DNA of 24,732 nt from an uncultured Candidatus Bathyarchaeia archaeon (GCA_964353395.1 CAYGVV010000001.1:1-24732), one strand, 5' to 3'; shown: positions 19,121 through 24,732, numbered from the stretch's first letter. Notes: generated by a model not told the origin, from the sequence alone. Numbers and translations are program-made.

Positions 19121-20365
19121 TCAAATAATGAGCATTAATGTTAAACCCGCGCACAAAGGAATCAAAAGATTATCGTTCACGGGCAGAGGCAAAACCTCCA
19201 CCGTCATGGCAACAGCAGCCCCAACCAAAGCCATCCAAGGCGCCACAAAAAATGAACCCGCCAGAAACGCAAAAGCGAAGCCAGCCAAAGAACCTTCCAA
19301 CGTTTTCGCTTTGTTAAATGGAAGAGGCTTCTTTGTGATTAGACCTCCGACGAGGGAGGCGGTGCTGTCGCCCAAGGCGAAAATGGCTATTGCGGCGTTG
19401 CTAGCGGGAACTGGAAAAAGCAGCAAAGTAAGCACGATGCCCACAGCGAAGTAGACTGGTGCTAAAGTGAACTCGCAAAGCTCTGTCTGAGACGCTGCAT
19501 AACGCGTTATGGTGGAGATAAGCGGCATGTTTTTTCCCCTTACACGTGACAATTCAGATGCCACGTAAAAAGCAATCACAATGCAAATCAGTAATGCAGC
19601 AACTGGAACACTGATTACCCCCGCGACAACAGGAACAAAAAAGCCTGAACCATGAATCATTTCCCGGAAAACATCGTTCCTTGACGGAAAAGCTCTCCGC
19701 TTGGATTCCCCGTTTAATACAAGCAAAATCTTCGACAGCTTGCCGTTTACCACAGTGTCCGCTTTCATGCGTATGCGGAAATCAGGGTTGTACCCTATTT
19801 TTTGCGCTCCTTTGAGAAAAAGACATGCGTTATTGCGGTCATCAGCCACAACCGCACACTCATCAACGCGTAATCCTTCAGTTTTGACTATTTGGTTGAG
19901 GACTCGCAGTTTCCCGTTTGGTTCTATAACTTCGCCCCAGATTTCTCCCGTCAGAGCCTCATCTTTGACGCCTACTTCTACGCCTACAGCGTAATCCGCC
20001 CCTAACATATCTGCTAATTTCTTGACTAGAAACGTTGGCAATCCTGAACTTATCAGCGCAGTTTTGTAGCCCGCTGATTTGAGCGAAGCGAAAACCTCTT
20101 TTGCATTAGGCATTAGGGGAAGCTTTTCGAGGCTTTGCAGGAACAACTGAAGTTTGGCGCCACGCATGACCATAAATAAACGTTGCAAAGCTGACTTCAA
20201 CCGCATCACGCCTATCTCGTATAGGAACCCGAAAAAGAGAACCTTAAGCAGCGGCGTTAGGCCTAGGCTTCTGCCCACTTCAAAGAACAGGCGGTTCTTG
20301 GGTATTAGCACGCCTTCAACGTCGAAGACCACAAGCTTTGACTTTGTGCAGTTTTGAGTTGTCAA
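19121..20365 (-). CDS. Fusion: HAD-superfamily (SerB/ThrH-like) domain + SEC59/DGK1/VTE5-type CTP-dependent lipid kinase domain
   Basis: N-terminal VVFDVEGVL, LISSG, K, ADDRNN; C-terminal FREMIH, ALGDSTASLVG, KTLEGSLAG, NDNLLIP with multiple TM helices. Confidence 0.85.
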   Translation of the reverse strand: MTTQNCTKSKLVVFDVEGVLIPKNRLFFEVGRSLGLTPLLKVLFFGFLYEIGVMRLKSALQRLFMVMRGAKLQLFLQSLEKLPLMPNAKEVFASLKSAGYKTALISSGLPTFLVKKLADMLGADYAVGVEVGVKDEALTGEIWGEVIEPNGKLRVLNQIVKTEGLRVDECAVVADDRNNACLFLKGAQKIGYNPDFRIRMKADTVVNGKLSKILLVLNGESKRRAFPSRNDVFREMIHGSGFFVPVVAGVISVPVAALLICIVIAFYVASELSRVRGKNMPLISTITRYAASQTELCEFTLAPVYFAVGIVLTLLLFPVPASNAAIAIFALGDSTASLVGGLITKKPLPFNKAKTLEGSLAGFAFAFLAGSFFVAPWMALVGAAVAMTVEVLPLPVNDNLLIPLCAGLTLMLII

Positions 20366-20461: not shown

Positions 20462-21805
20462 TCACGTGGACTCGCTGCAAAGGTACTTTTCACTTTGCAG
20501 TTCCAGAGGGCAGCCTCCTCCGCAGACCTGCAGTTGAGGGCAGTTCTTGCATTTGGCTTCAGCGTAGGCTCTGATGCGTATTTTCACGGCAACTGGGTGG
20601 TTCCAAATCTGAATCCACTTGTCAGTAAGGATGTTTCCTAAGCTTTCAAAGTAGCTTTGGCATGGGTAAACATCCCCGTTCGGTGCAACGCACATGTTAA
20701 TCAGCGCTGCCGTGCACGATTTGACGCCTAAACCTGCTTGGACAGGGTCGAAACGGCAGTACTGGGTAGGCGTGTACCACAGGAATTTTAGTCCAAGCTG
20801 CTGGGCTTTGACTCGGATTTTGGGCAGAAGCTCATTCAACTGGTCAAAGGTTAACGCGAATTCTTGGCTTACGCTTTCGGCTTTTCCAGAGTATATGAGG
20901 CTGTTGCAGCCGAAAGCATCAACGCCTAAGACCCTGATGAAGTCAACTGTGTCCAGGAATTCTGGGGCGTTGTGCTGGCTGAGCGTGGAGTTCGTGGTCA
21001 CGTAAATTTGTGAGTTAACCGCATTCCTGATTCCTGCAACGGTTTCCTTCCAACTGCCAGACGAAGCGGTCATCAAATCGTGGACTTCAGCCTTGTGAGA
21101 TTCCAGGGTTACTTGCACGAAGTCTAACCCTGCTTTCTCAAGCGTTTCCACGTAGGCTTTGTCTTTTAGCCTTCTGCCGTTGGATATGAGCCCCGTGACC
21201 ATGCCTTTGTTCTGGGCATAAAGCAGCAGTTCAGGCAGGTCTTCGCGGAGGGTAGGTTCGCCGCCTGTGAAGGTTAAGATGAAAATGCCAATGTCGCTTA
21301 GTCGGTCTATGACCTGTCGCCATTGCTGCGTGGTGAGTTCAGGCGTTTCGTGGGGTCCGCCTGCGTAGCAGTGGATGCAGTTGTTCTGGCACCTGAACGT
21401 CAAAGCCATGTCCATGCGCAGAGGCGCTGAATACTCGTAGCTGAAAGGCTCTTCTTTCTCAACATTAAGGAAGGTTACGGGGCAGATTTTCTCCGTTTTT
21501 GCCAGCGTGTTTACGGTGTAAACGAGTTTCTCGTAGTCCTGTTTTGCCTTTGCCTCGTTCACGCGGTACAGTTGACGGATTTTTTTTAACACGTGGTGTT
21601 GAGGTATGCCTTGCATGAAATAGTAAGCGTATGCCGAAGCGGTTTCATTAAGGTGAAGCACTGTGTTTGCGTTTATCACCATGACGCCGCGTCCGTCAGG
21701 CTCGATGCGAAGCTGAAGCGCTAATCCTGCGAACTCGCCTTTTCCACGGTACGTGTAACGGCCTGCAGGAACTGGGCGTTTTCTTATTCGTTGTAGGAAA
21801 CTCAT
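20462..21805 (-). CDS. Radical SAM/SPASM enzyme with N-terminal PqqD/RRE-like domain
   Basis: CQNNCIHC (CX3CX2C); FTGGEP; SPASM C-x12-G-x4-C and CX2CX5CX3C (CKNCPQLQVCGGGC); N-terminal three strands plus helices (GVMVINANTVLHLNETA...VLKKIRQLY...AKQD). Confidence 0.92.
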   Translation of the reverse strand: MSFLQRIRKRPVPAGRYTYRGKGEFAGLALQLRIEPDGRGVMVINANTVLHLNETASAYAYYFMQGIPQHHVLKKIRQLYRVNEAKAKQDYEKLVYTVNTLAKTEKICPVTFLNVEKEEPFSYEYSAPLRMDMALTFRCQNNCIHCYAGGPHETPELTTQQWRQVIDRLSDIGIFILTFTGGEPTLREDLPELLLYAQNKGMVTGLISNGRRLKDKAYVETLEKAGLDFVQVTLESHKAEVHDLMTASSGSWKETVAGIRNAVNSQIYVTTNSTLSQHNAPEFLDTVDFIRVLGVDAFGCNSLIYSGKAESVSQEFALTFDQLNELLPKIRVKAQQLGLKFLWYTPTQYCRFDPVQAGLGVKSCTAALINMCVAPNGDVYPCQSYFESLGNILTDKWIQIWNHPVAVKIRIRAYAEAKCKNCPQLQVCGGGCPLELQSEKYLCSEST

Positions 21806-21806
21806 T

Positions 21807-23432
21807 TTAGCCTACTCCTCCTCCGGCGCATGCACAAGCGCAAGAGACGCAAGCGCAGGCACAGGCGCATGCTGCACACGCGCAGACACCGTCGGCTCCG
21901 TGGCGTGCGGGTTCATGTGATGTTTTGGCTGGTGGTGGAGAGGGGACGATGGAGTTGGCGAATTTCTCGATGTTAGCTACGATGCTGTTTGAGGTTTTTT
22001 CTACGGATGTGGCGATGTTGTTGGCGAATTCTGCGCCTGGGATGACAGGGGGCTTCGCAGATTGGGCGGGAACATTGATGTTCGGCTTGTACGTGGGATG
22101 GGGATTGTAATGTGTGTAGCCGTACCAGACCCAGAACCACATGGGGCTGGGTTCGAAAGCGCGGGTTTGGAACGTTGTCTCTGTGCGTCCGCGGTAGTTC
22201 GGGTCTAACAGCAGCCAAAGCAACTGTTCATCGTAGGCTTTCGAGGCGATGTCTGCAGTGCCTGCTTGCTCCACTTGGTGCCAGGCTTTGTCCACGATTT
22301 TTCGGTAGTAGTCTATGGTGTCTTTTCTGCTGTAGCCGCGCAGCTTCTCCTCCAAAGTGTCGCGGAGAGTCATGACTGTTTTTGCCAGTTTTTCCTCGTC
22401 CAGGGTGCCGTCGGCTTTCAATGCGTTGAGGAAGTCGATTTCGTAGTATCGAAGCGGGTTCGTGTCGGGTCCTTTTTTGTTTTTGAATTCTGGCATGATT
22501 CGCAGGAGCAGCGTTGGCTTGGTTGATTCTGCCCATACGGCGCGTTTCTGGAGTAGGCTGTAGAGGATTTCTGTGACGATTTGTGTGGGTTTCAGGTCTA
22601 GGAGGTATGAGGCTTCGACTGCGGTTAAGCCGCGTCTTGCGCCGAGGGTTTCCATGCTGACTTTTGGCGCTGTGTATGCTCGTTTAGTAACTGCGATTAT
22701 GACTATTGCGATGGCGACTATGACGAAGAACAATGCAGCTGCCACTATAGCGATTGTTGTTGTTGAGATTTCGCCGCTTGCTGGCTGCTGCACGTAGTTT
22801 GGCAGGTACTGCTGTGGGAAGGAGACGCCGACGATGTACTGCTCGTTAGCTTGGATGACGGGTGTTTCCCAGTAAACTGTGAGTCTGCCGTCGGATTCTA
22901 TAGATGTGCTGTTCCAGAACTTCTCGTTGGTTTTGACGTCGCTGACGGAGACGTTTTGCGGAAGAACAATTTGTATACGGACGTCGTTTATGGGTACACT
23001 TTGCCATTCTGGGGCGAACTCCATGCCGAGGTTGCCTGGGTTCAGGGTATCGGGGCTTATCATGTTGCCGACGTTTGTGGTTACAATGAACCAGATGGTG
23101 TTTCCCGCGGTTAACGGCGTGTTAAGGTTAACTTTTGCGGCTGTGTCGTCCGGTGAAGCTTGCAGTGTGTTCCCGTACTGGTCTATGGCTGAGCCGACGA
23201 AAAAGTCGCTGTTGGGTTGCCCCAGTCTTACGTAGTTTATGTTGTCGCCTGAATCCAAAGTCAAGCTTACGTTGTATTGCAGGTCGATTGTGGCGTCGTC
23301 GTTTATCCAGAGTTTTGCCCATTCCTGGTTGAAACGGTACACGCGTGTCTGCGCGTTTGCTGCACTCAAGGACGCCACAGAAATGAGCATAATGGCTGCT
23401 AAAATCAGGGGGATAAGGCGTTTCTTCACCAT
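21807..23432 (-). CDS. Single-pass membrane protein (DUF2207-like architecture) with Cys-Ala-rich C-terminal tail
   Basis: Signal peptide, beta-rich outer domain, TM followed by KR, helical inner domain, tail CACAACACACACVSCACACAGGGVG holding all 9 Cys of the protein. Confidence 0.88.
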   Translation of the reverse strand: MVKKRLIPLILAAIMLISVASLSAANAQTRVYRFNQEWAKLWINDDATIDLQYNVSLTLDSGDNINYVRLGQPNSDFFVGSAIDQYGNTLQASPDDTAAKVNLNTPLTAGNTIWFIVTTNVGNMISPDTLNPGNLGMEFAPEWQSVPINDVRIQIVLPQNVSVSDVKTNEKFWNSTSIESDGRLTVYWETPVIQANEQYIVGVSFPQQYLPNYVQQPASGEISTTTIAIVAAALFFVIVAIAIVIIAVTKRAYTAPKVSMETLGARRGLTAVEASYLLDLKPTQIVTEILYSLLQKRAVWAESTKPTLLLRIMPEFKNKKGPDTNPLRYYEIDFLNALKADGTLDEEKLAKTVMTLRDTLEEKLRGYSRKDTIDYYRKIVDKAWHQVEQAGTADIASKAYDEQLLWLLLDPNYRGRTETTFQTRAFEPSPMWFWVWYGYTHYNPHPTYKPNINVPAQSAKPPVIPGAEFANNIATSVEKTSNSIVANIEKFANSIVPSPPPAKTSHEPARHGADGVCACAACACACACVSCACACAGGGVG

Positions 23433-23794
23433 TTCGGCTCCTCAGTTACTTCGAAAGTTTTTCCGCAGTAAGGACACGCAGCGTAGGGCACTCCTGAGAC
23501 AATTTTAATCTGATTCGGGTCCACGGAACCGCCGCAGTTGGGGCACTTGATTGGCGCGGCTTTCATCTGCCCCGAAAGCTCCAGCTGCTGGATGATGGTT
23601 GTGGGTTTGCGGGAGAAAACGTAAGCTACGTAGGCTACAGCGAAGCCGACAAGAAGAAGTATGGCGCCTTCCACCAATCTCAGAACCTGCTGTTCTTGAG
23701 TGAGGGTTACTGACCCAGCGGACAGTAGGAATATGAAGCCGAAGAATAGGAGAACTGCTGAGGCGATTGCGCCTAATACTACTGTAATTTTCAT
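23426..23794 (-). CDS. Small two-TM membrane protein with C-terminal Zn ribbon
   Basis: Two hydrophobic helices, then CPNCG-x17-CPYCG. The stop overlaps the next start (ATGGTGA, 7 nt). Confidence 0.85.
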   Translation of the reverse strand: MKITVVLGAIASAVLLFFGFIFLLSAGSVTLTQEQQVLRLVEGAILLLVGFAVAYVAYVFSRKPTTIIQQLELSGQMKAAPIKCPNCGGSVDPNQIKIVSGVPYAACPYCGKTFEVTEEPKW

Positions 23795-23914: not shown

Positions 23915-24732
23915 TTACAGAAGCTTAATAGCTGTTGCCACAATTTTCTGCACGATTTCCGGGTGTTGGTCGCAGTAATCATAGACTGCTCTAATAAGAT
24001 CATCTAACACAGATCCTGGTGCTTCAATTGATGTTGAAAGGTCTTTCTGCGGCATGTATTCACTTCCATCAAAAAGCACAGCTAAAACATATTCGCTGTG
24101 CCAAAAAGAAGTATCCAACTCCTTAGATTTCCTTGGACTTGAAATTTCACCTACCGCAACGCTTCCTAATCTTATGAGATCTTGGTCGAGGATTTCCCCG
24201 TTTTCCGAATCGCAGACTGTAATCAGGACCATCGTGTCTTTTGAAGCCATCTGACCTTGATTGCCTATGGTCACAGTTGCTTCTCCCACCTCGTTAAGCC
24301 ACGATAGCCACTCCTTGACGCTTAAGGAAATGGCTAGCTGAGGATTCGGCATGTCAACGGTCAAAGAAAGGTTATTCATATCCTTGTTGATATTGATGTA
24401 GCCTACGTCAATCTTTCCATAACCCTCATAATTAATTGATAATATATGTTGTCCTACAGCCACGATCTGCAGCAAGAGAGTTCCTTGTTGAGTCATTGAT
24501 CCCATTTCTTTTCCATCCAAAGAGACTGTCACATCTTTAACAAGTTCATTAGTCTCAGAGTCTCTCAGTGTTAACATAACAGATACATCTGGAACTAAAG
24601 GGTCAGTTTTTCTAACATTGATTTCATCGTAGTCAGAAGCCCCATCATCATCTGTATCTTGAACGAGCGGATTGGTATGATATGTTATTTCTTCGTTATC
24701 AGTCAATCTATCTCCATCAGTATCAACCTTCA
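23915..24732 (-). CDS. Probable secreted/surface protein fragment with bacterial TSP3-like Ca-binding repeats and Ig-like domains (5'-partial)
   Basis: Frame is open to the window end (KVDTDGDRLTDNEE...TNPLVQDTDDDGASDYDE...TDPL), followed by PEGA-like (VTVSLDGKEMG) and CARDB-like (ATVTIGNQG) beta segments. Confidence 0.75.
   Translation of the reverse strand, partial: KVDTDGDRLTDNEEITYHTNPLVQDTDDDGASDYDEINVRKTDPLVPDVSVMLTLRDSETNELVKDVTVSLDGKEMGSMTQQGTLLLQIVAVGQHILSINYEGYGKIDVGYININKDMNNLSLTVDMPNPQLAISLSVKEWLSWLNEVGEATVTIGNQGQMASKDTMVLITVCDSENGEILDQDLIRLGSVAVGEISSPRKSKELDTSFWHSEYVLAVLFDGSEYMPQKDLSTSIEAPGSVLDDLIRAVYDYCDQHPEIVQKIVATAIKLL

Follow-up and report, generated by a model that had tools for sequence, protein, structure and literature searches.

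Radical SAM/SPASM maturases are known almost wholly from small secreted peptides, and the protein substrates described for them are few, namely QhpC and, since September 2026, CrpA. The closest experimental precedent for the locus described here is the CrpC/CrpA pair (2026), which belongs to a different family. CrpC, an enzyme with RRE, radical SAM and SPASM domains, puts thioethers on the 28.8-kDa protein CrpA of Methanococcus voltae; ranthionine links have been shown for CrpA, and the product keeps its protein body (PMC13692751). As in our locus, the gene for this archaeal enzyme lies beside a gene for a full-size Cys-rich protein (PMC13692751). However, CrpA is soluble and carries ten 17-residue repeats with CxxQ/D motifs, whereas the protein considered here spans the membrane and carries a single short CACACA tail, in which CxxQ/D motifs are lacking, and the Crp paper makes no mention of a membrane protein or of a CACA motif (PMC13692751). 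CrpC itself is assigned to TIGR04463; the 25 best NCBIfam matches of our enzyme, which go down to 66 bits, do not include this family. In addition, the Crp screen demanded that proteins longer than 250 aa contain at least 5% Cys (PMC13692751); since the Cys content of our membrane protein is 1.7%, we infer that such a screen would miss it.

Other known systems resemble the locus in part. QhpD, as cited in PMC13692751, is a SPASM radical SAM enzyme whose Cys thioethers are made not in a natural-product peptide but in a subunit of a protein, quinohemoprotein amine dehydrogenase. Its substrate QhpC, however, is small and periplasmic and has Cys-Asp/Glu links, and we saw no similarity of sequence or context to our locus. 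SkfB, CteB, AlbA, Tte1186, PapB and StsB share the three-domain layout of our enzyme, act on Cys-rich substrates and include its best matches (SkfB; CteB by fold). However, the substrates of sactipeptide and ranthipeptide maturases are short secreted peptides encoded by separate genes, and the acceptor residues are not Ala. On the side of the membrane protein, the DUF2207 proteins (PF09972/PF20990), such as SMU.243 of S. mutans (PMC10457818), likewise combine an outer beta-sandwich, a transmembrane (TM) helix and an inner domain. Full-text literature searches turned up no account of the cassette. The system is covered by none of the Pfam and NCBIfam models, the tail-bearing protein matches none of them, and a literature search for the motif CACACAGGG returned only DNA primers.

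The window, that is, the whole stretch of 24,732 nucleotides that was analysed, comes from an uncultured Bathyarchaeia archaeon. Three minus-strand genes are tightly packed at 20462-23794, in the order zinc-ribbon protein, membrane protein and radical SAM enzyme; the first two have 7 nt in common (23426-23432), and a 1-nt spacer (21806) separates the last two, giving the junction TAA-A-ATG. The only intergenic gaps at the locus are 96 and 120 nt long, and there is therefore no space for a separate precursor gene: no gene for a short leader-core precursor peptide lies alongside the cassette. Within this genome, the sole occurrence of the Cys-Ala motif is the tail of the 541-aa membrane protein. 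The gene order, the overlap, the gap and the lack of a short precursor nearby had all been reported in the first-pass annotation, and the gene coordinates bear them out. The features are as follows.

20462..21805, minus strand: RRE/radical SAM/SPASM enzyme, 447 aa
21491..21805, minus strand: N-terminal RRE (PqqD-like), aa 1-105, four strands and then three helices (AF2 fold and profile)
20771..21433, minus strand: radical SAM core (about aa 125-345) with C139, C143 and C146
20465..20770, minus strand: SPASM domain (about aa 346-447), with C350, C364, C382, C419, C422, C428 and C432 conserved
21807..23432, minus strand: DUF2207-like membrane protein with Cys-Ala tail, 541 aa, the presumed substrate
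23361..23432, minus strand: N-terminal signal peptide or TM segment (aa 1-24), from hydropathy; helix 3-22 in the AF2 model
22815..23342, minus strand: extracytoplasmic beta-sandwich domain (aa 31-206), AF2 pLDDT >90, Foldseek, weak PF09972 match
22686..22763, minus strand: TM helix (aa 224-249), from hydropathy and AF2, with Lys/Arg on its C-terminal side
21948..22625, minus strand: cytoplasmic winged-helix-like and helical domain (aa 270-495), from AF2 and a DUF2207_C lead
21816..21884, minus strand: Cys-Ala core, C517-G539, CACAA-CACACAC-VS-CACACA-GGG, invariant in 33 distinct Bathyarchaeia loci
23426..23794, minus strand: zinc-ribbon membrane protein, 122 aa, with two TM helices (about aa 5-23 and 43-61) and then a cytoplasmic CxxC...CxxC zinc ribbon

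Our main reading, to which we assign a probability of roughly 0.6, is that the cytoplasmic (Cys-Ala)n-Gly-Gly-Gly tail receives covalent modifications from the enzyme, probably thioethers, as a RiPP-like core that is kept on the full-length membrane protein.

The enzyme has the domains of a peptide maturase. It matches Radical_SAM (PF04055) with 84.7 bits and SPASM (PF13186) with 41 bits; the CX3CX2C motif (C139-x3-C143-x2-C146) is conserved in 40/40 orthologues, and the seven-Cys SPASM motif for two auxiliary clusters is present as C364-x12-G-x4-C382, C419-x2-C-x5-C-x3-C432 and C350, while a further SPASM Cys, C443, occurs in about half of the orthologues. In the AF2 model (pLDDT 89.6), the nine best PDB fold matches, all with full-length alignment, are the RRE-fused peptide maturases SkfB, SuiB and CteB. 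The profile of the N-terminal domain matches the lasso-peptide RREs TfuB1 (E 3.7e-5) and TbiB1 (E 0.1), and PqqD (PF05402) matches 29/35 homologous N-domains, although the window's own N-domain is not reached when it is taken alone. This domain is missing from the radical SAM paralogues in the same genome. The two radical SAM/SPASM motifs are thus as first annotated, and the RRE fold, the lack of which had been set beforehand as a point that would tell against the proposal, was recovered by the model, by the TfuB1/TbiB1 profile matches and by PF05402. No named equivalog scores above its cut-off: the best NCBIfam match is NirJ2 (141 bits against 500), followed, in terms of the families considered above, by SkfB (91/300), StsB (89/625) and AlbA (84/850), and the bacterial and class B orthologues likewise fall below every NCBIfam cut-off.

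These matches also bear on the type of chemistry. The enzyme might modify the tail by something other than thioether formation: epimerisation as by PoyD or EpeE/YydG, conversion of Cys to formylglycine or dehydroalanine as by anSME, C-C cross-links as by SuiB, or joining of Cys sulfur to a lipid carbon. SuiB, anSME and EpeE do appear among the fold matches (ranks 2-6, 13-20 and 29-50), the lipid-joining relative GDGT-MAS is a weak sequence match, the strict two-residue period of the tail would suit alternating D/L epimerisation, and the tail is hydrophobic (Kyte-Doolittle 2.2). We nevertheless consider this alternative unlikely. The best match by both fold and sequence is the thioether synthase SkfB (E 2.6e-22 by sequence); the window tail lacks the anSME substrate motif C/S-x-P/A-x-R, and the enzyme, unlike the anSME type, has an RRE; epimerases are not known to have the RRE-plus-full-SPASM layout; and the cassette is present in archaea as well as in bacteria, two groups with different lipids.

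In the presumed substrate, the positively charged sequence TKRAY...K follows the TM helix, and the C-terminal part is therefore cytoplasmic by the positive-inside rule, in agreement with hydropathy, with AF2 and with the side assigned in the first-pass annotation. The tail thus lies in the same compartment as the cytoplasmic enzyme, and we count this topology in favour of the enzyme acting on the tail. The label "sensing" that had been given to the outer domain found no support: the domain is a beta-sandwich whose Foldseek matches are Ost1/ribophorin I and the N-domains of M1 aminopeptidases. With PF09972, the window protein scores 16.7 bits, below the gathering score of 24.4, while the homologues P0037 and P0078 reach this model; in a protein-language-model atlas, the neighbours of the tail protein are the DUF2207 and DUF2207_C clusters (0.93 and 0.88). 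Typical DUF2207 proteins have Gly-rich tail ends, and we know of no link between them and a radical SAM enzyme. Within the cytoplasmic domain, the A2 consensus contains a conserved amphipathic helix, PGAEFANNIATSVEK...KFANSI (about aa 466-495), which we regard as a candidate leader-like recognition segment; 3+4-type proteins contain the related motif FGDVxASFAGWxEN.

The membrane protein has no Cys in residues 1-516 and nine at 517-535, all within the last 25 residues, as originally noted. The tail, CACAACACACACVSCACACAGGGVG, has nine Cys in the window, where Gly stands in place of the first Cys, and ten in most relatives. The core is preceded by a flexible Gly/Ser/Pro-rich linker, lies at or near the C terminus and is disordered in the AF2 model; CACACAGGG is common to the tails across phyla, and similar tails do occur on bacterial membrane proteins, as first noted. 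The tail is under selection. In the 24-codon core, codon-pair differences are 52% synonymous and 10.7% non-synonymous, compared with 18% and 72%, respectively, in the 25 codons upstream. Although the codons are synonymously saturated, ten Cys, seven Ala and one Val are invariant, and Ala is thus as fixed as Cys. An origin of the tail by microsatellite slippage was rejected because the residues are fixed while the codons vary freely.

A tail of this composition may instead be an unmodified metal- or iron-sulfur-binding CxC array of the metallothionein kind, with the radical SAM enzyme as its partner for electron or cluster donation or for regulatory docking at the membrane; we judge this to be improbable, in spite of several points in its favour. 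The window tail contains CxC motifs, and CxC repeats are classic thiolate-cluster ligands. In addition, the C-terminal CxCxxxxCxC motif of CopY binds Cu(I)/Zn(II) (PMC12648655). By our own reasoning, the AA, VS and AG breaks could act as two-residue turns, and the resulting hairpin would bring all thiols to the same face, each Cys facing another, a geometry that suits a metal site just as well. Expression of the Crp cluster rises on pyrite, and the cluster is suspected of metal binding (PMC13692751); our cassette is confined to anaerobes. However, metal-binding tails tolerate varied spacers, whereas the Ala here are as invariant as the Cys; the obligate link to a single enzyme clade is likewise unlike CopY- or metallothionein-like tails; the conserved fused RRE implies peptide capture; and the tail is strictly inherited, and has decayed, together with one clade of enzymes, which is the pattern of an enzyme and its substrate. 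Note that modification and metal binding can coexist.

The linkage that carries the main reading was surveyed in two ways. Among 201 Bathyarchaeia genomes in which both genes were scored, 42 have both, 156 have neither and 3 are discordant, counts that are inflated by relatedness among the genomes, which the recurrence across phyla offsets in part; the three discordant genomes were rejected as real exceptions because the genes are cut at contig ends. In one complete genome (G008), the tail gene and the enzyme gene are both pseudogenes. The order zinc ribbon, tail protein, radical SAM enzyme is kept in 30/30 Bathyarchaeia loci, with tail-protein identity as low as 34%, and also recurs across phyla, which is far more than chance would give; in most loci, the stop-start spacing is 0-6 nt or the genes overlap. 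No conserved fourth gene was found across phyla, and the synteny of a HAD/kinase gene downstream of the cassette is limited to close relatives.

Independently of the protein body, a DNA pattern for the tail only was searched against 185,579 species genomes and was found in at least 10 archaeal and bacterial phyla. An enzyme of one monophyletic clade adjoins the tail in 94 of 100 testable loci (63/68 with terminal tails; 31/32 of the Firmicutes type). Five exception loci were checked, L036 on its 2-kb contig being left out, and all five genomes have an orthologue elsewhere. These orthologues score 369-475 bits, compared with at most 67 for paralogues (176 against 44 in class B), and two of the unlinked copies adjoin a second tail gene. 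Linkage is thus near-complete per locus and complete per genome where tested. The tail-linked enzymes form a single clade (SH-aLRT 100) in a tree that has 10 genomic paralogues as its only outgroup and contains no characterised reference enzymes, and the subclades follow tail type. Class B tail proteins mostly have no BLAST-detectable kinship to the window protein, yet they share the motif and the neighbouring enzyme of the same clade; it is the tail that tracks the enzyme, and not the protein body.

Chance co-location of the two genes was rejected on the basis of the Bathyarchaeia gene order, the phyletic pattern, the tail-only search and the exception genomes. The first-pass annotation had stated that its proposal would fall if tail-bearing homologues mostly lacked the radical SAM gene; these counts contradict that outcome, and its view of a RiPP-like core tethered to a membrane protein, having survived both this test and the RRE test, is supported. 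The cassette is found only in anaerobes, including Bathyarchaeia, Methanomassiliicoccales, Heimdallarchaeia, Chloroflexota, Clostridia, Planctomycetota and other groups. Sequencing runs with parts of the window's locus are only DNA runs from sediment, wetland and peat, with no RNA run among those matching the locus sequence.

The co-inheritance of the enzyme and the tail protein suggests that a full-length membrane protein undergoes a chemical maturation not described before. In the mechanism that we propose, the membrane protein would insert so that the beta-sandwich faces outwards and the C-terminal half lies in the cytoplasm, the RRE would dock onto the leader-like segment on the N-terminal side of the Gly/Ser/Pro-rich linker, and the flexible tail would enter the active site. 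There, 5'-deoxyadenosyl radicals would take H atoms and Cys sulfurs would bond to neighbouring carbons, giving sactionine- or ranthionine-type thioethers with Ala or Gly acceptors and thereby a compact cross-linked cap. The usual acceptors of known thioether maturases include Asp, Asn, Thr, Phe and Gln, and we know of no precedent for Ala or Gly acceptors within a strict CACACA string. In CteB, an open iron of Aux I binds the substrate Cys; judging from the motif spacing, the conserved SPASM Cys of our enzyme would presumably permit a fully Cys-ligated Aux I, which counts against the main reading.

The zinc-ribbon membrane protein may be a structural partner of the tail protein. Its Cys ligands are C84, C87, C107 and C110, and its gene lies 5' of the tail gene in the Bathyarchaeia loci and in at least 42 of 73 class A loci. 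The two are one fused protein in L040 and L100, and class B tail proteins contain a zinc ribbon of their own. A point against the main reading is that the enzyme's RRE could bind the zinc-ribbon protein instead.

If the enzyme does modify the tail, the product might still be a conventional small RiPP, cleaved and released from a membrane protein that serves as a very long leader, in line with the position of the core at or near the C terminus after a Gly/Ser/Pro linker, as in RiPP precursors. We regard this as highly improbable: the cassette has no conserved gene for a protease or an exporter, the body is itself conserved (66-88% identity over hundreds of homologues), the core is on the cytoplasmic side, and some relatives have a folded extension C-terminal to it.

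A wider proposal, for which we see an even chance, is that of a widespread, unnamed class of protein-tethered RiPPs. A dedicated RRE/radical SAM/SPASM clade would act on a portable module, [Gly/Ser linker]-(Cys-Ala)n-GGG, at the cytoplasmic ends of unrelated membrane proteins in at least 10 phyla, cross-linking it at several points or rewriting it by other radical chemistry. The product would be a redox- or metal-active cap through which the zinc-ribbon/DUF2207 membrane complex works. Screens by Cys percentage or for short precursor ORFs are likely to miss the motif because it is short and the Cys content of the whole protein is low. If the main reading is true, the cassette adds a membrane-protein substrate with a very simple and strongly conserved core to those of the radical SAM/SPASM maturases, supplies protein cross-linking chemistry with a portable tag of only about 15-25 residues and the enzyme that goes with it, and would provide the first functional handle on DUF2207-like proteins.

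Three minus-strand open reading frames, previously described in the first-pass annotation as a candidate system, were recovered exactly:

23794..23426, minus strand: zinc-ribbon membrane protein gene (122 aa)
23432..21807, minus strand: tail-bearing membrane protein gene (541 aa)
21805..20462, minus strand: gene for an enzyme with RRE, radical SAM and SPASM domains (447 aa)

There is a 7-nt overlap between the zinc-ribbon and tail-protein genes, and only one nucleotide lies between the tail-protein and enzyme genes. On either side of the trio, gaps of 96 and 120 nt are too small to hold a separate precursor gene. The presumed substrate is instead the C-terminal tail of the 541-aa protein, CACAACACACACVSCACACAGGGVG. 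All nine Cys of this protein lie at residues 517-535, and the tail is the sole Cys-Ala run of its type in the 1.93-Mb genome.

The 541-aa protein is a distant DUF2207-like protein, DUF2207 being a family of unknown function. Hydropathy and an AlphaFold2 model give a signal or transmembrane (TM) segment at residues 1-24 and a single TM helix at 224-249, with Lys/Arg on the C-terminal side of the latter, which by the positive-inside rule places the tail in the cytoplasm. In the model, residues 31-206 form a beta-sandwich predicted with confidence and residues 270-495 a helical domain, and the tail is disordered. Ost1/ribophorin I and the N-domains of M1 peptidases have folds similar to that of the outer domain, a likeness that says little about function. 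In the PDB, the best fold matches of residues 31-206 (window 22815-23342) are to Ost1/ribophorin I of the eukaryotic oligosaccharyltransferase (E 3e-10), with an alignment that in part spans the whole beta-sandwich, the TM helix and the inner helices (up to 446 columns) and a TM-score of only 0.24-0.27; M1 aminopeptidase N-domains rank next. In the 122-aa protein, two TM helices are followed by a CxxC...CxxC ribbon.

The tail proteins fall outside all Pfam and NCBIfam models, and full-text literature searches did not find a description of the cassette, which is apparently undescribed so far. The study of CrpA and CrpC, a protein and its RRE-radical SAM-SPASM enzyme from Methanococcus voltae, used a Cys content of 5% as the lower limit of its protein screen (PMC13692751); since the 541-aa protein contains 1.7%, we infer that it would have escaped that screen.

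The enzyme carries the motif C139-x3-C143-x2-C146 and both the Radical_SAM and SPASM domains of Pfam, but exceeds no curated family cut-off (best NCBIfam match NirJ2, 141 bits against a cut-off of 500). The proposal that its N-terminal domain has an RRE fold withstood several comparisons. In the AlphaFold2 model (43 sequences; pLDDT 89.6, pTM 0.89), strands at 15-52 and three helices at 54-103 precede the radical SAM barrel, and the nine best PDB fold matches are the RRE-fused peptide maturases SkfB, SuiB and CteB, each aligned over its full length (409-473 columns). A profile of the first 125 residues matches the lasso-peptide RREs TfuB1 (E 3.7e-5) and TbiB1 (E 0.1). Of 35 homologous N-domains, 29 match Pfam PqqD (best E 5e-9); the window's own copy does not. 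Paralogues in the same genome align to the enzyme only from residue ~124 onward.

Homologues of the tail protein number more than 1,500, the named ones mostly from Bathyarchaeia. Among 201 genomes sampled from this class, which are related so that the counts are not independent, the tail protein was matched in 44 and the enzyme in 43 (E below 1e-60); both were present in 42 and neither in 156, and in all three discordant genomes the match is cut by a contig end. In one 100%-complete Bathyarchaeia genome the two genes have decayed side by side as adjacent pseudogenes (L159, G008:C55:49000-54000): the enzyme is split over several frames by several frameshifts, and the tail protein retains only residues from ~342 onward, with an in-frame stop. 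The two genes are gained and lost together, with a patchy distribution. The order zinc-ribbon, tail, enzyme gene holds in 30/30 loci fetched, even at 34% tail-protein identity.

To search from the tail motif alone, the back-translated core CACACAGGG was compared, ignoring the protein body, with one genome per species from 185,579 species. This search returned 118 stretches: 73 of class A (motif at the protein end), 41 of class B (Firmicutes-type, mostly Clostridia) and five chance matches. Class A occurs in archaea (Bathyarchaeota, Methanomassiliicoccales, Thermoplasmatota, Heimdallarchaeota and a Nanoarchaeia-labelled MAG) and bacteria (Anaerolineae and other Chloroflexi, Planctomycetota, Acidobacteriota, Hydrogenedentes, Sabulitectum and Myxococcota). 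In genuine class B proteins the motif is followed by RAGCSxKDFY and 20-35 more residues.

Tail bearers do not, for the most part, lack the enzyme gene: it lies in 63 class A loci (five cut, five exceptions, none spurious) and 31 class B loci (six cut, one exception, three spurious short ORFs). Whole-genome searches of five of the six exception genomes each found one clear orthologue elsewhere, at 369-475 bits against at most 67 for paralogues in class A and 176 against 44 in class B; two of these unlinked copies adjoin a second tail gene.

A maximum-likelihood tree of 83 sequences combined the enzymes encoded next to each type of tail with unlinked orthologues and, from the same genomes, ten SPASM paralogues. 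Every tail-associated enzyme falls on one side of a branch separating it from the paralogues (SH-aLRT 100); class B enzymes form one clade (100) and class A enzymes another (96), whose subclades track the tail type (single run, 3+4+3 Cys, 4+3 and 3+4).

Outside the motif, most class B tail proteins show no detectable relation to the window protein; many contain their own zinc ribbon, and two loci (L040 and L100) encode the zinc-ribbon and tail proteins as one fusion. What stays constant is therefore the combination of motif, zinc ribbon and enzyme rather than the body of the protein. The motif is a portable module, because the core can also be internal, followed in P0160 and P0169 (tail-protein homologues) by a domain of ~95 residues, or can end very large ORFs of 1,150-1,220 codons whose upstream part contains or overlaps the enzyme gene (loci L074 and L082).

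Several further genes adjoin the cassette. In Chloroflexi, a 113-aa PAS-like protein, a second radical-SAM-like paralogue and a class I SAM methyltransferase follow the enzyme (for example L076:5674-7905; also loci L117, L142, L039, L104, L102, L034, L053, L098 and L113); the methyltransferase cluster occurs in 29 of the 73 class A loci. Three aligned copies of the paralogue, judged by their sequences, have lost every cluster-binding Cys and are hence pseudo-enzymes. Within the enzyme clade, degenerate second copies have at least two separate origins. In the window, a 414-aa gene with Pfam HAD hydrolase matches (19121-20365, minus strand) lies 96 nt after the enzyme gene and keeps this position in the close Bathyarchaeia relatives L068, L129, L090 and L145; it was unmatched in all other loci fetched, other phyla included. 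Upstream, outside the conserved cassette, a minus-strand gene that runs off the window (23915-24730) encodes bacterial TSP3 repeats (thrombospondin type 3-like, DxDxDGxxD).

Codons were compared among 33 distinct Bathyarchaeia loci. In the 24-codon tail core, synonymous codon-pair differences amount to 52% and non-synonymous ones to 10.7%, all at five positions, as against 18% and 72% in a 25-codon upstream stretch. Ten Cys, seven Ala and one Val are invariant, which shows that the Ala spacers are under the same constraint as the Cys. A slippage repeat or nucleic-acid signal is ruled out, since the residues are fixed while synonymous codons vary. A serious rival is that the tail binds a metal or cluster, with or without modification: two-residue breaks, if they act as turns, would put all thiols on one face, Cys opposite Cys. 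Such a constraint pattern would, however, be expected if the tail is an enzyme substrate, and a simple metal-binding tail rarely shows it.

In the GGG motif, the second Gly codon is GGA in 29 of the 33 loci, while the first varies freely (window 21806-21825). GGAGG is thereby placed ~10 nt before the enzyme start codon, and in most loci 0-6 nt lie between stop and start; together, these features fit translational coupling of the two genes.

In the best-supported mechanism, the RRE would capture a segment upstream of the linker, and the tail would then enter the active site and be rewritten covalently by the enzyme. A candidate docking site for the RRE is the conserved amphipathic helix at 466-495, for which other class A subfamilies have an equivalent. 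By analogy, the most likely chemistry is thioether formation, because the closest relative in sequence and fold is the thioether synthase SkfB and because CrpC makes thioethers on CrpA, the only experimentally studied archaeal case of the same enzyme layout acting on a protein (PMC13692751); less probable alternatives are epimerisation, Cys oxidation and C-C coupling. The cassette is a real and strongly conserved enzyme-substrate module, with the tail as putative substrate, in which RiPP-like radical SAM maturation, of predicted chemistry and biological role, would be applied to a membrane protein.
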